This document shows, piece after piece, positions 7,784-24,737 of a stretch of DNA of 64,000 bases; within the stretch, counting starts at the first letter, position 1; each line of letters starts with the position of its first letter. The notes beneath the pieces were generated by a model that was not told where the DNA came from, made no database searches, and saw only the letters and a list, made by a program, of their open reading frames with translations. Both the position numbers and the translations under genes were made by a program. The DNA is from a virus. The DNA is taken from IMG/VR virus record IMGVR_UViG_3300003323_000567, positions 62,035-126,034 of that record; one strand, written 5' to 3'.

Positions 7784-8626
7784 TTATGGGTATGGTTCCT
7801 TCTTTATCCATGAATGTCCGAAGGGATGTTTGATTCTATGCCAGGCTTTTCTGAAGAACCCCTTGGGGTAGGTAGTAAGGACTCTACAGCAGTCGTACAT
7901 TTGTATAGCATAGGGATCCTTTTCAGCCCCAATGTTTAGTTCAAAGTTTACTGTAATAGGTGGAGTAATTATGTAATGACCTAGTGCCTGAAATGTGATC
8001 TGACCTCTAACAGTCCCAGAACTATCAATAGGCATTCTGAATAGCTGCATGAATGTCACATTACTTCTATACTGTGGTATAGGACAGGAAGGAGGTTGTA
8101 ACCCCTCAGTTTCCTCATTATTTGCATATGCCAGATACTCCAGAACTACCATTTTTTCTACTGGTTTCATCACTGAAGATCTTTCGAATGTAACAATGGG
8201 AGAAAACGGGCACACATCCTGCATATTAGGTCCATATATCCACCATCCCCTGGTCACACTTGCTCTGAGTTGAAACTCAAAATGTGCTGCGTCTACTCTC
8301 ACAGCTTTCCAATCCCATATTACAGGGTTGACTTGAGCTTGACCCAGTAGAGGAATCAGTGCTACGAGAGCCACTAATACCCTTCCTTTAAAGGATCTTC
8401 CTTTGAATTTGTCTTCCCTTGGGGATTTTTGAAACTCACTTTCAGGGCCAAAAAGTGCTGAGAAGTCCTGTTCATCGAAGGTTCCAATACATTTGCGACT
8501 ATAGAAATTAAATACTTCCCATTGTCCATTTGATTGCTGCACAAAGACTTTGTCTCCCCGTGCAGTCAATATTCTCCGCCCATCAGGGTCAGTAGAAATA
8601 AAATCACTTTTAGCTCTGTAACGCAT
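7784..8626 (-). CDS. protein with DsbD N-terminal-like domain
   Basis: Internal signal-like segment VLVALVALIPLLGQAQ, then VIWDWKA...FQLRASVTRGWWIYG...Y...VTF.Q...VRGQITFQA, resembling Bacteroidota DsbD-N domains. Confidence 0.55.
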   Translation of the reverse strand: MRYRAKSDFISTDPDGRRILTARGDKVFVQQSNGQWEVFNFYSRKCIGTFDEQDFSALFGPESEFQKSPREDKFKGRSFKGRVLVALVALIPLLGQAQVNPVIWDWKAVRVDAAHFEFQLRASVTRGWWIYGPNMQDVCPFSPIVTFERSSVMKPVEKMVVLEYLAYANNEETEGLQPPSCPIPQYRSNVTFMQLFRMPIDSSGTVRGQITFQALGHYIITPPITVNFELNIGAEKDPYAIQMYDCCRVLTTYPKGFFRKAWHRIKHPFGHSWIKKEPYP

Positions 8627-8743
8627 ATTGATAAGTTGATTAATGTTAATGAAAAGGGAGAGTGGAAACTCCCCCTACGTAGTGTTTGATCTGCTCCTTA
8701 CGGAACTAATTTTGACTTTTTACTTTGGCCTCTAAATGTTCTT

Positions 8744-9631
8744 TTATTGGTTTTGTTCTTTCTTTTTTCTAACTGCATTGTTTCTTTTTGCGTACTGAAA
8801 CTTTATTCTCGCTTCAGCACTCTTTGGTTCTATATTCAACCTTTCCCTCCTCTCAAGAATTCTCTGTTTTGTCTCTTCCAGCATCTCCTCTGTTATCTGT
8901 TCCTTGGGAAGACCAGTTTTGCTACTGGCCACAAGTCTGAGGTAATTTGGAGACAATTTCTGAGATTGAGAGGCATATTTACCGTTTTTCTTTATGTCTT
9001 CTCTTCTTTTAAGAGTTTGTGCTCTTCTTTCTTCTATCATCTCTGGAGTAATATCTTCGTTCTTTATGCCTGAGAGCCTGAGTAATTGTCTTACATAACA
9101 ATCATCCAGATTATCTCTGTTCTTTCTTGTTGATCTTTTTGGGACTGCTCCTATCTTCTTAAGAGCTGCTAGTTTCTCAAGCCTTTCTCTTTCTGCTATT
9201 ATTTCGGCTCTTTTCTCATCAATCATCCATCGTTTAACATCCTTTGCTTTCATCTTCCCTCGGGCAGTGAGGAGCTTAATAATGTAGCTATCTTCGAGGT
9301 TTAATCTGGCCTTTTCAGCCTTGATTCTGGCATCTGCTCGTCTTTTACTAGCAAATACAGGATCCTCTCTTCTCTTCTGGGAGATCTTTTTGTTGGCTCT
9401 TTTTTGATAGACTCTCCTTTTGGACTTCTTGAAAGAAGGTCTATTTTTCTTAACACATTGCTTGCACATCTTGAGAGGTTTATGTTCACCATCTTTGTTT
9501 TTAACAAGATAGAACATATTGATGGGTAATACCCCATGTTTCTTGCACTTGGCATGTCTTAAGCCTGTTAGCTCAAATTTAATCCTGGCCTCTTCCTGGA
9601 CCTTTAGTAGCTTTTCTTCTGCTGTGGGCAT
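8744..9631 (-). CDS. highly basic repeat protein with putative Zn finger
   Basis: Likely start MPTAEEK at 9631; CKKH...CKQC; three repeats of D/N-x-Y-xxxL...I/V-T/K-x-E/W-M-I/L-x-E. Confidence 0.6.
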   Translation of the reverse strand: MPTAEEKLLKVQEEARIKFELTGLRHAKCKKHGVLPINMFYLVKNKDGEHKPLKMCKQCVKKNRPSFKKSKRRVYQKRANKKISQKRREDPVFASKRRADARIKAEKARLNLEDSYIIKLLTARGKMKAKDVKRWMIDEKRAEIIAERERLEKLAALKKIGAVPKRSTRKNRDNLDDCYVRQLLRLSGIKNEDITPEMIEERRAQTLKRREDIKKNGKYASQSQKLSPNYLRLVASSKTGLPKEQITEEMLEETKQRILERRERLNIEPKSAEARIKFQYAKRNNAVRKKKEQNQ

Positions 9632-20075: not shown

Positions 20076-20480
20076 ATGAGTAAATTCACAGATGACTTTT
20101 TTGCCTTTCCTATTAAGGTGTATGATGGCTTCTCTCTGAAGAAGGCCATGGATGAAGAGGATAAGGTAGGGACTGAAGCTCCTGTGCCAATTGACTGGGT
20201 AGCTGGATGGGTGAGGATACCTGTAAAGGATTTACCTAAGATGATGTGGCATGAGGGCTTTTCCAGGGAGAGAAGTGTAAAGGATGTGGCTGAGGAAGGC
20301 TTTGATCTGACTATTGTTATTACTGATAGTTATGGAGAGTTTGTGAGTACATGGCCAAGGAAGAAGTTCGAAGCTAAGCTGGATGACTTCATGGCTAAGT
20401 ATCAGACCAGGGCAAAGGACTATCTATCAAGCCCGAACCCCCATATTCTCGTTCAATCTATATCCCCTGAGGGACAATAG
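20076..20480 (+). CDS. hypothetical protein
   Basis: Start MSKFTDD chosen downstream of the promoter (ORF track 20004..20480). Confidence 0.65.
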   Translation: MSKFTDDFFAFPIKVYDGFSLKKAMDEEDKVGTEAPVPIDWVAGWVRIPVKDLPKMMWHEGFSRERSVKDVAEEGFDLTIVITDSYGEFVSTWPRKKFEAKLDDFMAKYQTRAKDYLSSPNPHILVQSISPEGQ

Positions 20481-20490
20481 AGAAAATAAA

Positions 20491-20522
20491 TTTGGAGAAT
20501 TGAAATCTTGGATCTATATTTG
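20491..20522 (+). promoter_or_regulatory. promoter of tRNA operon 1
   Basis: TTTG(20491)-20 nt-TATATTTG(20515). Confidence 0.85.
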
Positions 20523-20549
20523 CAGGATAAAATCTAAACAAAGAAGAAA

Positions 20550-20630
20550 ATGTACTATTCAATAGTGGATAATGGGATCATGAGAGGCGCAGAGAAATCT
20601 GCTCCAGGGGTCTCTTTGTCTACTATGTAA
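20550..20630 (+). CDS. attenuator leader peptide 1 (MYYSIVDNGIMRGAEKSAPGVSLSTM)
   Basis: 26 aa uORF between promoter and terminator; codons 5-16 match the tRNAs of operon 1. Confidence 0.8.
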   Translation: MYYSIVDNGIMRGAEKSAPGVSLSTM

Positions 20631-20652
20631 TTGATAAACAAGTAGTTAACCA

Positions 20653-20695
20653 AGATCCCTGGAGCACCAAAGAGCTCTGGGGATTTTTGCTTTAT
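20653..20695 (+). terminator. intrinsic terminator/attenuator 1
   Basis: atccctggagc-loop-gctctggggat plus T-tract; 5' arm also complementary to 20600-20613. Confidence 0.85.
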
Positions 20696-20766
20696 GCCCT
20701 CATAGCTTAATGGTAGAGCTCGAACCTTTTAAGTTTGAGATCCAAGTTCGATCCTTGGTGGGGGTA
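20696..20766 (+). tRNA. tRNA-Lys(TTT)
   Basis: Cloverleaf GCCCTCA/TGGGGGT; loop CTTTTAA. Confidence 0.85.
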
Positions 20767-20775
20767 CAGAAATAT

Positions 20776-20846
20776 TCCCTTGTAGCTCTAAGGTAGAGTA
20801 GATGACTCTTAATCATCGGGCGAAGGTTCGATTCCTTCCAGGGGAA
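20776..20846 (+). tRNA. tRNA-Lys(CTT)
   Basis: TCCCTTG/CAGGGGA; GATGA-CTCTTAA-TCATC. Confidence 0.9.
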
Positions 20847-20847
20847 C

Positions 20848-21024
20848 ATGGCAACTAAAGATAAGAAAATCAGGAAGCTGAAGGACAGGATAGAGAAGAT
20901 GGAAGCAGATATGTATAAAGAGTTGAGACAAAAGACATCTTCAACTGCAGAGATCAGCGTACATAAGTATCAAGCCAGATTGGCTCAAATGCATCTGGAG
21001 CTTCGGGAACTCGAAAAGAAATAG
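20848..21024 (+). CDS. 58 aa coiled-coil protein inside tRNA operon 1
   Basis: MATKDKKIRKLKDRIEKMEADMYKELRQKTSSTAEISVHKYQARLAQMHLELRELEKK (manual translation). Confidence 0.6.
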   Translation: MATKDKKIRKLKDRIEKMEADMYKELRQKTSSTAEISVHKYQARLAQMHLELRELEKK

Positions 21025-21025
21025 T

Positions 21026-21232
21026 ATGAAGATTACGTTTCAAGAGATGGCTCTAAGGGGTAAAGAGATCTTGTCTAGGCAGGGGCCTGTTACATTAGAG
21101 CAGGCTAGGGAGCAAGTAGAAAGACTTAAGAAGAATTCAAAATGCTCCATAGCACAGGGGTTGAGTGCATCTGCCTTACAAGCAGTCGACCTTGGTTCGA
21201 GTCCAAGTGGAGCAACCCAAAAGGAGTTATAG
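21026..21232 (+). CDS. small protein whose frame runs through tRNA-Val
   Basis: ATG directly after the previous stop; first ~39 codons look like protein, the rest overlap the tRNA. Confidence 0.4.
   Translation: MKITFQEMALRGKEILSRQGPVTLEQAREQVERLKKNSKCSIAQGLSASALQAVDLGSSPSGATQKEL
21143..21215 (+). tRNA. tRNA-Val(TAC)
   Basis: TGCTCCA/TGGAGCA; loop CTTACAA. Confidence 0.85.
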
Positions 21233-21294
21233 CTCAATGAATAGAGCCTCTGCCTTCTAAGCAGATTATCAAGGTTTGATTCCTTGTAACTCCT
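21223..21294 (+). tRNA. tRNA-Arg(TCT)
   Basis: GGAGTTA/TAACTCC; TCTGC-CTTCTAA-GCAGA. Confidence 0.9.
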
Positions 21295-21384
21295 CAGGTC
21301 TGTTTCCAGCTTCAGCGTGGAGTACAAAAGTTGGGGTTTTCAACTGCAGTGTATTACTTTCCATAAAGTGATCTCCTGCAGCCA

Positions 21385-21456
21385 GGACAGTTAGCTCAGA
21401 GGAAGAGCAAAGAGCTGTTAACTCTTAGGCCGGGATTTCGAAATTCCCACTGTCCT
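21385..21456 (+). tRNA. tRNA-Asn(GTT)
   Basis: GGACAGT/ACTGTCC; AAGAG-CTGTTAA-CTCTT. Confidence 0.9.
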
Positions 21457-21457
21457 C

Positions 21458-21745
21458 ATGAAAGAATATCTGTTGAGTATAGGTTTTGAACAGAAGTTAC
21501 CTTGGCAGTTTCACACTGATTCTTACATGGTAACTGAACTTGAAGAAGATTCCAACTCCATACCCCTCTGGAGCATCACAAATAAGAGGTATGATGAAAA
21601 AGTTTTCAGAGGAAGAATAAGGAGTGTTGAAGAGTTTAAGCAGATCTTTATGCTTGTGAAAGAGGATTATGACTTGACACAGGATGAAATAAGTTGGGCA
21701 ACAGCTATAAGAGGTAATGAAGAATTAAATAAGATTGCGGGGTAG
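21458..21745 (+). CDS. hypothetical protein inside tRNA operon 1
   Basis: 95 aa ORF filling the gap between tRNA-Asn and tRNA-Met. Confidence 0.65.
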   Translation: MKEYLLSIGFEQKLPWQFHTDSYMVTELEEDSNSIPLWSITNKRYDEKVFRGRIRSVEEFKQIFMLVKEDYDLTQDEISWATAIRGNEELNKIAG

Positions 21746-21809
21746 ACTGGAGAGGTGCCAGCTCAGTCTCATAAGCTGAATGACATGGGTTCGATTCCCA
21801 TCCCCGCAA
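21736..21809 (+). tRNA. tRNA-Met(CAT)
   Basis: TGCGGGG/CCCCGCA; TCAGT-CTCATAA-GCTGA. Confidence 0.8.
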
Positions 21810-21877
21810 CTAATCAGGTCTCCCACCCTGGTCCAGAGGGAGAGCAATGGGGCACTTGGGGACTGCCTACCTGATAT

Positions 21878-21948
21878 GCATCACAAGCATTGTGACGATG
21901 CTCCATCCTTCCAAGTTGGAGAGCAGGGTTTGATTCCCTGGTGGTGCT
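21878..21948 (+). tRNA. tRNA-Gly(TCC)
   Basis: GCATCAC/GTGGTGC; loop CTTCCAA; U73. Confidence 0.8.
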
Positions 21949-21949
21949 C

Positions 21950-22177
21950 ATGGATAAGAATGAAGTAAAGAAGAGATTATATAAGGAAAACCCAGGTGCA
22001 ATCTTACTGGAGGTAAGAGCAGATGGTATGTTATACCAAGCTCTCTTTAAAGGGGATGATGGGTTACCTGATATAAACCAAAAAGTAAAATTCCTTGTTC
22101 CCTTAGGGGAAATAGGAGAAGTAGTATGGAATAGGATAATGGATGCTAAATTATTAATAAGATGGTTACAAGATTAA
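21950..22177 (+). CDS. hypothetical protein inside tRNA operon 1
   Basis: MDKNEVKKRLYKENP...FLVPLGEIGE...MDAKLLIRWL. Confidence 0.65.
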   Translation: MDKNEVKKRLYKENPGAILLEVRADGMLYQALFKGDDGLPDINQKVKFLVPLGEIGEVVWNRIMDAKLLIRWLQD

Positions 22178-22195
22178 AAGAAGGTGAGGAGCTAT

Positions 22196-22268
22196 GCTCC
22201 CATCGTCTAATCGGTTAGGACGTTACTCTTTCAAGGTAAAAACGAGGGATCATAACCCTCTGGGAGTA
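22196..22268 (+). tRNA. tRNA-Glu(TTC)
   Basis: GCTCCCA/TGGGAGT; loop CTTTCAA; atypical T loop ATCATAA. Confidence 0.8.
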
Positions 22269-22366
22269 CAACATATTTAAGCTACATTGCGGACAAATGC
22301 TCTTAACTGAGCTGAGACCTGATAGGTTTCATACAGCAATTTGTCTGTCCGCCATGTGGCTAGTTC

Positions 22367-22436
22367 GAGGGTGTGGTGTAATGGTTGCATAACATCTTGT
22401 CACGGTGCAGGTTGGGGTTCGAGCCCCCCACTCTCG
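22367..22436 (+). tRNA. tRNA-Asp(GTC)
   Basis: GAGGGTG/CACTCTC; loop TTGTCAC; G73. Confidence 0.85.
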
Positions 22437-22444
22437 ACTTAAAT

Positions 22445-22520
22445 CGGCTCATAGTTTAAGAGGTCAAAACTCCCGACTCATAATCGGATGTTCCCAGATC
22501 ATGGCTGGGTGAGCCAACCA
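22445..22520 (+). tRNA. tRNA(CAT), probably Ile2 (lysidine type)
   Basis: CGGCTCA/TGAGCCA plus ACCA; anticodon arm CGA-CTCATAA-TCG as I recall for bacterial Ile2; ATA codon present in leader 1. The C1:A72 mismatch means an initiator identity cannot be excluded. Confidence 0.65.
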
Positions 22521-22602
22521 ATCTTGAGGGTGCATGTCCCTCAGGGACAACTAGAGGATAAAGTGGGGGAGGGTAAGAACCCCCTCTCCCCCTTTATCAA
22601 AT

Positions 22603-22674
22603 TGCCTGGTAACTCAGTGGTAGAGTGCCTCTCTGATACGGAGTGAGTGGATAGTTCGATTCTATCTCAGGCAA
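22603..22674 (+). tRNA. tRNA-Ile(GAT)
   Basis: TGCCTGG/TCAGGCA; loop CTGATAC. Confidence 0.85.
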
Positions 22675-22738
22675 CAGTAGGGACAGCTAAGTAACTGGAA
22701 GGGATGAAAGTTAGCCTTCGGGTTCTGTCCAAACACCA

Positions 22739-22812
22739 GGGGTTACATGTACCAAGGTTGGCGAGGGATCCTTGCAAGATCTCTGAGAAGAGTTCGATTC
22801 TCTTTAGCTCCA
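22739..22812 (+). tRNA. tRNA-Ala(TGC)
   Basis: GGGGTTA/TAGCTCC with G3:U70; loop CTTGCAA. Confidence 0.85.
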
Positions 22813-22820
22813 CAGATTTA

Positions 22821-22852
22821 TTTGGAAATCTCAAAAAGACTTCCTACATTTG
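22821..22852 (+). promoter_or_regulatory. promoter of tRNA operon 2
   Basis: TTTG(22821)-20 nt-TACATTTG(22845). Confidence 0.85.
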
Positions 22853-22859
22853 CAACATC

Positions 22860-22928
22860 ATGACAAAAGTATTATCATATTCCAGTCTATATCTCTTGAT
22901 CAAAGATCGAGCTGGGATGGTTATATAG
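22860..22928 (+). CDS. attenuator leader peptide 2 (MTKVLSYSSLYLLIKDRAGMVI)
   Basis: 22 aa uORF; codons 5-13 encode only Leu/Ser/Tyr, the amino acids of operon 2. Confidence 0.8.
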   Translation: MTKVLSYSSLYLLIKDRAGMVI

Positions 22929-22950
22929 TTTTTTTTGAAACCGTGGAGGT

Positions 22951-22986
22951 GCCCCAGCTTTTCTAGGCTGGGGTTTTTTGTTTTTA
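22951..22986 (+). terminator. intrinsic terminator/attenuator 2
   Basis: gccccagctt-ttct-aggctggggt plus T-tract; 5' arm complementary to 22909-22916. Confidence 0.85.
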
Positions 22987-22987
22987 T

Positions 22988-23060
22988 ACCTTGGTAGCCC
23001 AACGGAAGAGGCAGTAGTCTTAGGAACTACACAGTGTGGGTTCGAATCCCACCCTCGGTA
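22988..23060 (+). tRNA. tRNA-Leu(TAG), short variable arm
   Basis: GTAGT-CTTAGGA-ACTAC; T arm GTGGG-TTCGAAT-CCCAC; two acceptor mismatches. Confidence 0.75.
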
Positions 23061-23145
23061 CATGTTTATAATTTGTTTTGGAGAGTGTATGTGGCTAGTA
23101 GAGTTCAATGGACTGACTACTAATTGGTTATGCAGATTGGTATAA

Positions 23146-23220
23146 GTCCCTGTGATGTAATTAGGTAACCATACCAGACTTAAAATCTGGGTTTTGTAGG
23201 TTCAAGTCCTACCAGGGATA
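23146..23220 (+). tRNA. tRNA-Leu(TAA), short variable arm
   Basis: GTCCCTG/CAGGGAT; CCAGA-CTTAAAA-TCTGG. Confidence 0.85.
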
Positions 23221-23225
23221 CATAA

Positions 23226-23311
23226 GGAAGGTAGCACGGGATGCTCTGTAACTAGTCTTGAAAACTAGGCCAACGTGAAGAGCGTTGATGGTTGGACTCC
23301 ATTACCTTCCT
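23226..23311 (+). tRNA. tRNA-Ser(TGA)
   Basis: GGAAGGT/ACCTTCC; CTAGT-CTTGAAA-ACTAG; long variable arm CAACG/CGTTG. Confidence 0.8.
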
Positions 23312-23318
23312 CATATAA

Positions 23319-23402
23319 GGAGAGCAAACCTAAGAAGCCTTAGGAGCAGACTGCTAATCTGACTGTCCCTTAGGGGATGTGGATCGAGACCACTACTCTC
23401 CT
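23319..23402 (+). tRNA. tRNA-Ser(GCT)
   Basis: GGAGAG/CTCTCC; CAGA-CTGCTAA-TCTG; long variable arm. Confidence 0.8.
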
Positions 23403-23407
23403 CATAT

Positions 23408-23478
23408 TGAGTGGATGCCAGGGCAGCAGGCAATGTCTGTAAAACATAGGCACTAGGGTTCGAGTCCCTACCACTCAA
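23408..23478 (+). tRNA. tRNA-Tyr(GTA), short variable arm
   Basis: TGAGTGG/CCACTCA; ATGT-CTGTAAA-ACAT. Confidence 0.8.
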
Positions 23479-23484
23479 CTTTTA

Positions 23485-23516
23485 TTTGGTAGTCTCAAAT
23501 AACTACCATATATTTG
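23485..23516 (+). promoter_or_regulatory. promoter of tRNA operon 3
   Basis: TTTG(23485)-20 nt-TATATTTG(23509). Confidence 0.85.
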
Positions 23517-23520
23517 CATC

Positions 23521-23601
23521 ATGAATAAAGTATTTCGTCATACGTGGTTTACCTGTCAGCCTACTCAACCAGTGGGAAGGGGTGATGTCATGTATGATTA
23601 G
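23521..23601 (+). CDS. attenuator leader peptide 3 (MNKVFRHTWFTCQPTQPVGRGDVMYD)
   Basis: 26 aa uORF; codons 5-17 encode only F,R,H,T,W,C,Q,P, the amino acids of operon 3. Confidence 0.8.
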   Translation: MNKVFRHTWFTCQPTQPVGRGDVMYD

Positions 23602-23622
23602 AATATAAAGTTCTTGCATGCC

Positions 23623-23660
23623 AACCCCCTTTCTAACCAGATTGGGGGTTTTTCTTTTTA
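23623..23660 (+). terminator. intrinsic terminator/attenuator 3
   Basis: aaccccc...gggggtt plus T-tract; 5' arm complementary to 23573-23582. Confidence 0.8.
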
Positions 23661-23661
23661 T

Positions 23662-23733
23662 CTAGTTGTAGCCTAGAGGCCAGGCACTTGCTTTGGGAGC
23701 AAGATGACGCTAGTTCGATCCTAGCCAGCTAGA
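23662..23733 (+). tRNA. tRNA-Pro(TGG)
   Basis: CTAGTTG/CAGCTAG; CTTGC-TTTGGGA-GCAAG. Confidence 0.9.
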
Positions 23734-23738
23734 CATAC

Positions 23739-23812
23739 TCCAGATATGCTTTGATGGTGAAGCGCCTGTCTTGTAAACAGGAATAGAGAGTGTTCGAGTC
23801 ACTCATCTGGAT
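23739..23812 (+). tRNA. tRNA-Thr(TGT)
   Basis: TCCAGAT/ATCTGGA; CCTGT-CTTGTAA-ACAGG. Confidence 0.85.
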
Positions 23813-23817
23813 CATTT

Positions 23818-23890
23818 GGTGCTCAAGCAATTGTGGTCAATGCACCTGTCTGAAGAGCAGGCAAACTCAGTTCGATCCTGAGGGGTACCA
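23818..23890 (+). tRNA. tRNA-Phe(GAA)
   Basis: GGTGCTC/GGGTACC; CCTGT-CTGAAGA-GCAGG. Confidence 0.85.
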
Positions 23891-23897
23891 CTTATAA

Positions 23898-23969
23898 TGC
23901 CCTTTAGCACAATGGTAGTGCGTGAGTCTTTGGTCCTCATTATGTAAGGTTCGATTCCTACAGGGGCAT
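23898..23969 (+). tRNA. tRNA-Gln(TTG)
   Basis: TGCCCTT/AGGGGCA; loop CTTTGGT. Confidence 0.8.
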
Positions 23970-23971
23970 CT

Positions 23972-24044
23972 GTGGAGATACCAATTCGGTGAATGGGCTT
24001 GGCTGTGAACCAGGTAAGGCAGTTCGACTCTGCACTCCACCCCA
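23972..24044 (+). tRNA. tRNA-His(GTG)
   Basis: GTGGAG/CTCCAC, C73, CCA; CTTGG-CTGTGAA-CCAGG. Confidence 0.8.
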
Positions 24045-24115
24045 CTACCCTTCGTTCAAAGGAAGGACTTGAAGCTACGAACTTCAGGATATAGGTTCGA
24101 ATCCTATAGGGTAGT
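24045..24115 (+). tRNA. tRNA-Arg(ACG)
   Basis: CTACCCT/AGGGTAG; TGAAG-CTACGAA-CTTCA. Confidence 0.9.
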
Positions 24116-24118
24116 CAT

Positions 24119-24189
24119 ACATCTCTCAGGCCATGGGGGCCAAACAGTCTCCAAAACTGCAGGATAAGGTTCGATTCCTTAGAGGGGTG
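24119..24189 (+). tRNA. tRNA-Trp(CCA)
   Basis: CAGT-CTCCAAA-ACTG; T arm TAAGG-TTCGATT-CCTTA; 5' end uncertain by 2 nt. Confidence 0.8.
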
Positions 24190-24196
24190 CCGATAA

Positions 24197-24270
24197 GGCC
24201 AATTCGCCAAGTGGCAAGGCCGAGGCTTGCAAACCCTCTATCACCTGTTCGATTCAGGTATTGGCCTCCA
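24197..24270 (+). tRNA. tRNA-Cys(GCA)
   Basis: GGCCAAT/ATTGGCC, U73, CCA; loop TTGCAAA. Confidence 0.9.
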
Positions 24271-24305
24271 GGATCCTCTCTAATGAGAGGATTTTTGCTT
24301 TTTAT
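24271..24305 (+). terminator. terminator closing the tRNA array
   Basis: atcctctc-taat-gagaggat plus T-tract. Confidence 0.8.
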
Positions 24306-24377
24306 GGCATTAAGTCCCAGATACTTACATATTACTTCAAAAAAGGTCGTTAACTTTGTAAAAGAAAACCAAGCTAC

Positions 24378-24737
24378 ATGAAGGTAATTGTGCAGAAAAT
24401 ACGGAGAGAGGTAGCTTCTGACGTGGAAAAGGCAATAAGGTATTATTCTGTACTCCTTGCTCTGAATCAAGTTAAGCTTCCACAGAAGCAGCTATATCTA
24501 TTGGCATTCACTGCAGCCCGAGGGAGTATAACATCTCCTGCTGCAAGAAAGGAATTTGTAGAGATGTTTGATAGTTCCCTGGCATCTTTGGAGAACATGA
24601 AGCAAGAACTTGTTAAGTCTGGTTTTCTGGTCCAAACTGACATGAAGTATAGAGTTAATCCAAGCATTGCTCTGGATTTCTCAAAGGATATACAATTACA
24701 GATAAACCTAAAGGGAAGTGAAAAAGACCCAAGATAG
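24378..24737 (+). CDS. putative winged-HTH DNA-binding protein
   Basis: SLASLENMKQELVKSGFLVQ...YRVNP. Confidence 0.55.
   Translation: MKVIVQKIRREVASDVEKAIRYYSVLLALNQVKLPQKQLYLLAFTAARGSITSPAARKEFVEMFDSSLASLENMKQELVKSGFLVQTDMKYRVNPSIALDFSKDIQLQINLKGSEKDPR

Follow-up and report, generated by a model that had tools for sequence, protein, structure and literature searches.

A putative leader-peptide transcription attenuator with a Leu/Ser/Tyr codon run ahead of the matching tRNA genes of a crAss-like phage

Introduction

Can a phage tie the transcription of its tRNA genes to the speed at which the codons read by those tRNAs are decoded? This question is raised by a short cassette at positions 22821-22986 of a 64,000-nt stretch of viral DNA (hereafter the window), which is the right half (positions 62,035 to 126,034) of the 126,034-nt IMG/VR virus record IMGVR_UViG_3300003323_000567. 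The cassette consists of a Bacteroidota-type promoter, an open reading frame (ORF) of 22 codons and an intrinsic terminator, and it heads five genes for tRNAs of leucine (Leu), serine (Ser) and tyrosine (Tyr). To judge from its sequence and from those of its relatives, the element is probably a ribosome-mediated (leader-peptide) transcription attenuator that senses how well its own tRNAs' codons are being decoded.

The record encodes a crAss-type major capsid protein and a P22-like portal, and the source virus is a crAss-like phage. The promoter type, which is the only pointer to the host, suggests an uncultured member of the Bacteroidota. ARAGORN identified 23 tRNA genes on the forward strand between 20696 and 24270, and the array was found to carry three cassettes, each with a leader ORF and a block of tRNA genes behind it; the cassette described here is the second. 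A relaxed ARAGORN run added a gene for tRNA-Ala(TGC) at 22739-22813, which has G3:U70 and is missed by default callers.

Leader ORF, RNA folding and proposed mechanism

Codons 5-13 of the leader ORF (22872-22898) read TTA TCA TAT TCC AGT CTA TAT CTC TTG; they encode four Leu, three Ser and two Tyr residues and nothing else, and sample the TTR, CTN, TCN, AGY and TAY codon boxes. The initial annotation, made from the letters of the window, had listed these nine codons correctly and had set them in the four-segment layout of a classical attenuator with a terminator before the tRNA block. The 1:2, 2:3 and 3:4 hairpins were all found to form in folds, the coordinates that had been given for the segments were approximately right, and the 3:4 terminator (stem at 22951-22974 followed by a T-tract) does lie ahead of the tRNA-Leu gene at 22988. 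This stem has 10 pairs, six of them G-C, with a loop of 4, and the terminator was called strong. It ends 13 nt short of the start of tRNA-Leu(TAG), a gap too small to hold a promoter.

In the minimum free energy (MFE) fold of the full leader, 22878-22885 (segment 1) was paired with 22912-22919 in the tail of the ORF (segment 2), and the terminator was present. With segment 1 left out, 22909-22916 were instead paired with 22953-22960, that is, with the 5' arm of the terminator (segment 3). The whole leader folds at -38.7 kcal/mol, compared to -26.7 +/- 3.8 kcal/mol for shuffled sequences (z -3.17), with one of 200 shuffles being as good.

The presence of a ribosome was imitated by masking the RNA through 13 nt beyond the A-site codon. 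With the ribosome masked in the run of the window and the terminator 5' arm already made, a 2:3 hairpin of -16.8 to -19.1 kcal/mol remained, while a ribosome masked at the stop codon hid segment 2 and left the terminator alone. The same behaviour was found throughout a comparison set of six cassettes (that of the window and those of contigs L002, L013, L015, L030 and G001), which was drawn from scans of viral and metagenome contigs. In all six, masking of the run gave a 2:3 hairpin (-10 to -25 kcal/mol) that captures the terminator 5' arm, the stop-codon mask gave the terminator only, and the untranslated full-length RNA gave the 1:2 hairpin plus the terminator. The cassette of the window thus combines a leader ORF, a concentration in that ORF of codons tied to the operon, an intrinsic terminator, an antiterminator that excludes this terminator, and an upstream hairpin that overlaps the run and excludes the antiterminator, which are the structural features by which attenuators are recognized.

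These folds are consistent with the following series of events. Host RNA polymerase would start at the Bacteroidota-type promoter and a ribosome would load on an AUG with hardly any leader before it. With fast decoding of Leu, Ser and Tyr codons, the ribosome would reach the stop codon and cover segment 2, with the 3:4 terminator forming and transcription ending before tRNA-Leu. Slow decoding of any codon of the run, resulting from a scarcity of charged Leu, Ser or Tyr tRNA, would stall the ribosome within the run with segment 1 covered; the free segment 2 would then pair with the terminator 5' arm as that arm emerges, the terminator would be prevented, and the polymerase would read through the genes for tRNA-Leu(TAG), tRNA-Leu(TAA), tRNA-Ser(TGA), tRNA-Ser(GCT) and tRNA-Tyr(GTA). 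The new tRNAs would in turn speed decoding and close the switch (negative feedback). Without any translation of the leader, the 1:2 hairpin would form and the terminator would act.

A second sensor in the tail of the ORF was also entertained, as the nine residues encoded by 22899-22925 all belong to the amino acid set of the first tRNA block. This candidate was dropped, the probability of such a tail by chance being approximately 0.1 and the relatives being without the feature.

Match between leaders and their tRNA blocks

The two sister cassettes of the array follow the same principle. The run of the first leader covers all ten amino acids of its own 12-tRNA block, and that of the third leader covers all eight amino acids of its own. 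Across seven contigs, the least probable run of a leader was the one composed of the amino acid set of its own block in 16 of the 17 leaders.

The comparison was widened with a scan for a 16-mer of the tRNA-Leu anticodon arm, which added 120 mostly unrelated phage loci, and a cassette detector (a terminator abutting a tRNA gene, with a short ORF ending just upstream) was run over 337 loci. Fifty-one cassettes were found. Leader and tRNA set, when correctly paired, matched at p < 1e-3 in 16 of these 51, as opposed to 66 of 1940 mismatched draws. Outside the clade of the window, two of 22 cassettes scored, both of them located on G002, a 20-kb fragment of another phage. One of these has a ten-residue run, drawn from Leu, Val and Cys alone, that precedes genes for Cys, three Val and six Leu tRNAs; the other has a 17-residue run, confined to Lys, Thr, Tyr, Gln, Pro and Gly, that precedes 15 tRNA genes of exactly those six kinds. 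The first cassette of G002 was also found to form the same stall-dependent antiterminator. Fragment G002 (L304 and L338) carries its cassettes on the minus strand (reverse-complement coordinates 8128-11182 and 13002-17543), has a CheckV completeness of 6%, and encodes several isoacceptors in duplicate.

Natural changes in the partition of the array point in the same direction. The third block of L019 retains only Pro, Gln and His, and its leader has a run of six residues drawn from no other amino acids. That the leader follows its block when the partition changes is the strongest argument for a functional match between the two. In G001 (L045, L101) the blocks stand in the order 3, 1, 2 with each leader remaining with its own block, which indicates that the cassettes move as modules.

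This matching bears on whether the same device might answer to another signal, namely host amino acid starvation or a general stress on translation, the tRNA block then being part of a stress programme and not of a feedback on tRNA supply. A stalled ribosome cannot tell a missing tRNA from an uncharged one, as is established for trp and his attenuation, and a tRNA array of Anabaena has been described as induced by translation inhibitors (PMC8421152). Extra tRNA would, however, bring no relief from starvation, and a correspondence between leader and block would then be pointless, yet the match is seen to follow changes in partition. The Anabaena array is moreover placed under promoter repeats, and the text describing it contains none of the terms 'leader peptide', 'attenuat' or 'terminator' (PMC8421152). 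Starvation or stress as the natural signal is thus considered unlikely, and a shortage of the matching tRNAs would be the better candidate.

Conservation among related cassettes

A 119-aa protein is encoded next to the array, and 64 homologues of it were present in a large protein collection. The copy in L002 (same contig as L010) is 90% identical to that of the window, followed by those of L013 (identical to L016) with 80%, L015 with 61% and L030 (same contig as L038) with 44%; G001 is a 165-kb record on which the array wraps over the terminal repeat. All six cassettes possess an intact ORF of 22-30 codons at the same place, with a Leu/Ser/Tyr-only run of 9-12 codons that samples all five codon boxes in each case. 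The order of the residues, the codons used, the opening three or four residues and the entire tail vary among them. On this comparison, the composition of the run is under selection.

Variation between the leaders respects the reading frame, as the gaps in the first 75 columns of a MAFFT alignment are multiples of three. In three cassettes the ORF begins 4-7 nt past the -7 box of the promoter, and in the other three it follows the stop codon of another upstream ORF, with an overlap (G001) or a distance of 5 nt (L030) or 17 nt (L015). Retention of the start codon and frame in both of these upstream settings argues that the ORF is translated. A run of at least six T is present within 25 nt past the stop codon in four of the six cassettes. 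An ORF of approximately 50 codons for a very basic peptide was observed inside the arrays of G001 (L101:368-520) and L030 (3517-3663), and in G001 its stop codon and the ATG of the Leu/Ser/Tyr leader overlap.

The terminators differ in sequence from genome to genome, and co-variation was detected between the ORF tail and the terminator. Duplexes between a tail and its own terminator 5' arm have a mean energy of -14.4 kcal/mol, compared to -9.6 kcal/mol (sd 3.0) for foreign pairs, and three of the 720 possible permutations of the assignment do as well. RNAalifold, using the MAFFT alignment of the six sequences, recovered the 1:2 hairpin and the terminator, with changes on both sides in 10 of the 21 consensus pairs. 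Poor alignment of the terminators made the consensus energy weak (-3.01 kcal/mol), and per-sequence folds and duplex energies were therefore relied on. Together, the retention of the run in five other contigs, the co-variation of tail and terminator and the switching of the masked folds in six of six cassettes support the attenuator reading that had been put forward in the initial annotation.

The same comparisons bear on the possibility that the product of the ORF is a small hydrophobic protein with an independent function, the terminator marking the end of its gene and the tRNAs arising from constitutive leak-through or unseen promoters. Leu/Ser/Tyr-rich peptides do resemble membrane peptides, small protein genes do occur among the tRNAs of the first block, and the terminator is strong. 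Outside the run, however, the peptide is not conserved, with only the composition of the run being kept; three cassettes of one array each match their own block, and the leaders follow other tRNA sets in G002 and L019. The terminator stands 13 nt before the tRNA gene, where a promoter would not fit, and its arm is complementary to the tail of the ORF. This explanation is regarded as very unlikely.

A switch made of RNA only, with an incidental ORF and direct binding of tRNAs or of a protein to the leader (antitermination that is T-box-like or protein-mediated), appears less probable still. Precedent is provided by the T-box, where a tRNA controls antitermination without a ribosome, and all six cassettes have the same nucleotides in a short part of segment 1. 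Against this stand the frame, intact from ATG to stop in six of six cassettes with insertions and deletions in whole codons, and the run itself, the positions of which swap among Leu, Ser and Tyr and among codon boxes and never leave the set. A cmscan of 20000-24600 against Rfam at E <= 1 gave no leader family and no T-box match. The only non-tRNA match on the cassette was to Spot 42, whose 22.3 bits (E 0.48) lie far below the gathering score of 80. This match and a tmRNA match on the tRNA-Ala-like gene (16.8 bits) were rejected as chance or tRNA-likeness.

Chance association of an ordinary terminator with a short ORF rich in three common amino acids is the least likely reading, since although Leu, Ser and Tyr make up 18.6% of the residues in the long ORFs of this phage, runs of at least nine codons for these three only occur three times in the six-frame translation of the 126,034-nt genome (one being the leader run, with none of at least ten codons), the probability of such a run within a 22-codon ORF is estimated at approximately 4e-6, and the pattern recurs in six of six related cassettes, in the two sister cassettes and in the excess of matched over mismatched pairs given above.

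Other searches for relatives were less productive. Blastn of the array against a phage collection returned tRNA-level matches only (none of 160 records covered at least 80% of the query), tblastn of the 119-aa neighbour protein against the phage collection gave no match, and no relative was found in a scan of genome contigs. Among viral contigs, a 17-mer of tRNA-Leu(TAG) was present in eight stretches, one of which was related (L010, on the contig of L002). A 14-mer of the third leader was present in 72 stretches, four with a tRNA gene within 400 nt downstream; L038 and L045 among these are relatives, and L064 and L092 were discarded as chance matches inside the array of another phage (L092 was inspected). 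A 15-mer of the second leader was found in at least 118 stretches, and the 117 loci newly retrieved from these all lacked a tRNA gene within 300 nt downstream.

The tRNA genes of the block

The features of the cassette and of the tRNA genes behind it are listed in Table 1. ARAGORN called the genes for tRNA-Leu(TAG), tRNA-Leu(TAA), tRNA-Ser(TGA) and tRNA-Tyr(GTA), and the promoter of the next cassette begins at 23485, after the last of these. The remaining gene, tRNA-Ser(GCT)-like, was called neither by ARAGORN (even at -ps80) nor by Rfam. It aligns with the called tRNA-Ser(GCT) genes of L013, L030 and G001 with an invariant anticodon loop, and it is only on this alignment and the same anticodon loop that it is accepted here as a putative tRNA-Ser(GCT) gene. 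A 6-bp hairpin occupies its D-arm position, and the same hairpin is found in L002. At E <= 1 the Rfam tRNA model did not list the tRNA-Tyr gene, nor did it list tRNA-Ser(TGA) as a tRNA.

Table 1. Features of the Leu/Ser/Tyr cassette and its tRNA block in the window (MFE, minimum free energy).
Feature	Position	Strand	Remarks
Bacteroidota sigma-A-type promoter	22821-22852	+	-33 TTTG at 22821-22824, 20-nt spacer, -7 box TAnnTTTG at 22845-22852
Leader ORF, 22 codons	22860-22928	+	ATG at 22860, TAG stop at 22926-22928
Regulatory run, codons 5-13	22872-22898	+	4 Leu, 3 Ser, 2 Tyr, nothing else
Segment 1, within run	22878-22885	+	Pairs with segment 2 (MFE folds; RNAalifold)
Segment 2, ORF tail	22909-22919	+	22912-22919 pair with segment 1, or 22909-22916 with segment 3
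Run of eight T straight after stop codon	22929-22936	+	Possible RNA polymerase pause site (putative function)
Segment 3, terminator 5' arm	22951-22960	+	22953-22960 alternatively pair with segment 2 (antiterminator)
Segment 4	22965-22986	+	Terminator 3' arm (22965-22974) and T-tract
tRNA-Leu(TAG)	22988-23061	+	74 nt, short variable loop, two acceptor-stem mismatches; Rfam 49 bits
tRNA-Leu(TAA)	23146-23221	+	76 nt, short variable loop; Rfam 59.6 bits
tRNA-Ser(TGA)	23226-23312	+	87 nt, long variable arm; Rfam: sub-threshold tRNA-Sec match only
Divergent tRNA-Ser(GCT)-like gene	~23317-23403	+	Long variable arm, unusual hairpin in D-arm position; by alignment to relatives
tRNA-Tyr(GTA)	23408-23479	+	72 nt, short variable loop; last gene of unit

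The codons of the run had been said to match these five tRNAs. This was found to be true in that all five codon boxes are sampled and four of the tRNAs are called; the match to tRNA-Ser(GCT) is by alignment only, and two of the nine codons, TCC and CTC, would be within reach of the phage tRNAs only if U34 can pair with any of the four bases.

The block had further been described as a class II tRNA set, Leu, Ser and Tyr being the bacterial tRNAs with long variable arms. The description holds for the identity of the three amino acids, and by shape it holds in L015 (1164-1605) and G001 (L101:667-1473), where all genes of the block are 81-88 nt and retain the arm. In the window, a class II shape (variable arm of more than 10 nt, gene of approximately 85-90 nt) was found only for tRNA-Ser(TGA) and the tRNA-Ser(GCT)-like gene, with the two Leu genes and the Tyr gene being too short. 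Leu genes of 74-77 nt are shared by the window, L002, L013 and L030, with an alignment gap of 11-12 nt at the site of the arm; a Tyr gene of 72 nt is found in the window and in L013 and L030, while that of L002 is 86 nt with a long arm. Ser genes are long-armed in every cassette compared. As far as is known, the variable arm is essential for seryl-tRNA synthetase and not for leucyl-tRNA synthetase, which would fit this pattern of retention. The class II label is therefore right by amino acid identity and probably by ancestry, and is not descriptive of the genes in the window. Class II grouping is also not the general organising rule on the evidence of G002, because there Leu is grouped with Val and Cys, and Tyr with Pro, Gln, Thr, Gly and Lys.

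The two Leu genes of the window are separated by an 84-nt spacer (23062-23145) without a match from Rfam or ARAGORN; in L002 they are only 4 nt apart. Small protein-coding ORFs are situated among the tRNA genes of the first block (20849-21025, 21027-21142, 21459-21735 and 21951-22177), so that the unit behind the first attenuator would be a mixed mRNA and tRNA transcript.

Promoter and start of transcription

The strict form of the promoter pattern was found five times in the window, where 1.10 occurrences were expected and none of 100 shuffles reached five. These are also its only occurrences in the whole 126-kb genome (window positions 20029, 20491, 22821, 23485 and 50000), and the three leader ORFs of the array each have one of the five in front of them. 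The tRNA units may belong to a small number of transcription units in this phage that host RNA polymerase reads in its unmodified form.

The ATG at 22860 begins 7 nt past the -7 box, as had been noted together with the suggestion that the mRNA is nearly leaderless. The positions were confirmed, and the arrangement fits the location of the -7 box at -12 to -5 given for Flavobacterium psychrophilum (PMC9723704). By this published position, +1 would fall at approximately 22857, 3 nt before the ATG, giving a predicted 5' UTR (untranslated region) of 3 nt. The same source counts 5.5% of F. psychrophilum mRNAs as leaderless and mentions clues to leader-peptide attenuation before amino acid operons in the Flavobacterium transcriptome (PMC9723704). 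By analogy, this supports the plausibility of both attenuation and a leaderless start in the presumed host.

Observations weighing against the attenuator

A number of observations weigh against an attenuator of the kind proposed. With regard to folding, the 1:2 and 2:3 hairpins taken alone are only mildly unusual (z -1.71 and -1.69, with 14 and 11 of 200 shuffles being as good), and when segment 4 is present the terminator wins at equilibrium in most of the masked folds. As the terminator is the usual equilibrium winner, read-through would have to be decided kinetically, as it is in classical attenuators. The pairing of the ORF tail with its own terminator arm is not the best in its row for L030 (-7.1 against -11.0 kcal/mol), for L013 (-12.8 against -15.5) and, narrowly, for L015 (-13.3 against -13.8).

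With regard to decoding, the 65 run codons of the six cassettes divide into 27 with a Watson-Crick match, 24 served by standard wobble and 14 that require four-way wobble at U34, a count in which one Ser tRNA without an ARAGORN call is assumed for each of L002, L013, L015 and L030. With two to four codons per amino acid, the response to a shortage of a single tRNA may also be weak.

As for the comparative evidence, the six cassettes are homologous and do not amount to six independent trials, the cassettes of G002 have the same G-rich pairing motif as these six and may be distant homologues too, and the first cassette of G001 breaks the rule of matched runs, one Leu interrupting its run. Furthermore, leaderless mRNAs are a minority in flavobacteria, according to the transcriptome study (PMC9723704).

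Wider significance

The genes placed behind this element lie outside the classical scope of attenuators (biosynthesis, transport or synthetase genes), being five tRNAs. To our knowledge, known forms of leader-peptide attenuation control enzymes that make, move or charge amino acids, and no description of leader-peptide attenuation of tRNA genes was found in full-text literature outside the subscription journals and the older publications on the tRNA region of T5. The same logic applied to tRNA genes, with test codons matched to the encoded isoacceptors, would constitute a direct feedback on decoding speed.

Tentatively, and with more doubt than is attached to the single element, phage tRNA arrays may be demand-driven, the present phage carrying three multi-codon gauges that together cover all 20 amino acids and that would each open only the tRNA block whose codons are being read too slowly. 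If this were so, the phage would detect which part of the decoding capacity of its host is failing and replace only that part, attenuator 2 being the Leu/Ser/Tyr channel. Candidate triggers are a mismatch in codon usage, the loss of host tRNAs through decay in the course of infection, and their cleavage by defence (anticodon) nucleases.

Should the proposed mechanism be correct, it would explain how the costly tRNA arrays of large phages are kept from being expressed before they are needed, and it would allow the tRNAs that share one regulatory unit to be predicted from sequence. It would furthermore open a route to the study of tRNA-targeting defences and phage counter-measures, provide synthetic biology with a compact modular sensor of specific tRNA pools, and represent ribosome-coupled attenuation on almost leaderless mRNAs in the Bacteroidota, a phylum without Shine-Dalgarno-led initiation.

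Comparison with known systems

Multivalent attenuators are known from the thr leader, with Thr and Ile codons, and from the ilvGMEDA and ilvBN leaders, with Ile, Leu and Val codons. The phage cassette resembles these in having a short translatable leader with codons for several amino acids, 1:2, 2:3 and 3:4 hairpins and a terminator before the first gene, with the position of the ribosome as the predicted sensor. It differs from them in that tRNA genes would be the ones controlled and that the codons match the downstream isoacceptors in all five boxes, as well as in being phage-borne, with a Bacteroidota promoter, an almost leaderless ORF and no similarity to the leaders in Rfam.

The pheST attenuator of Escherichia coli, with its pheM leader, is a cellular element that controls a synthetase and responds to the charging of one tRNA. 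Leader-peptide attenuation of a component of the translation apparatus is common to both; unlike in pheST, the product of the phage element is tRNA itself, so that the loop would close directly on decoding speed. In T-box riboswitches, as proposed here, the state of a specific tRNA decides between terminator and antiterminator before translation-related genes. The T-box, however, binds the tRNA directly without a ribosome or an ORF, whereas the phage cassette possesses a conserved ORF and gives no T-box match.

Lastly, the array of Anabaena sp. PCC 7120 is an accessory tRNA array that is silent and comes on when translation is impaired (PMC8421152), which is how the phage array would behave. 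In contrast to the promoter repeats of the Anabaena array (PMC8421152), control in the phage would sit after initiation and would be specific to each block.

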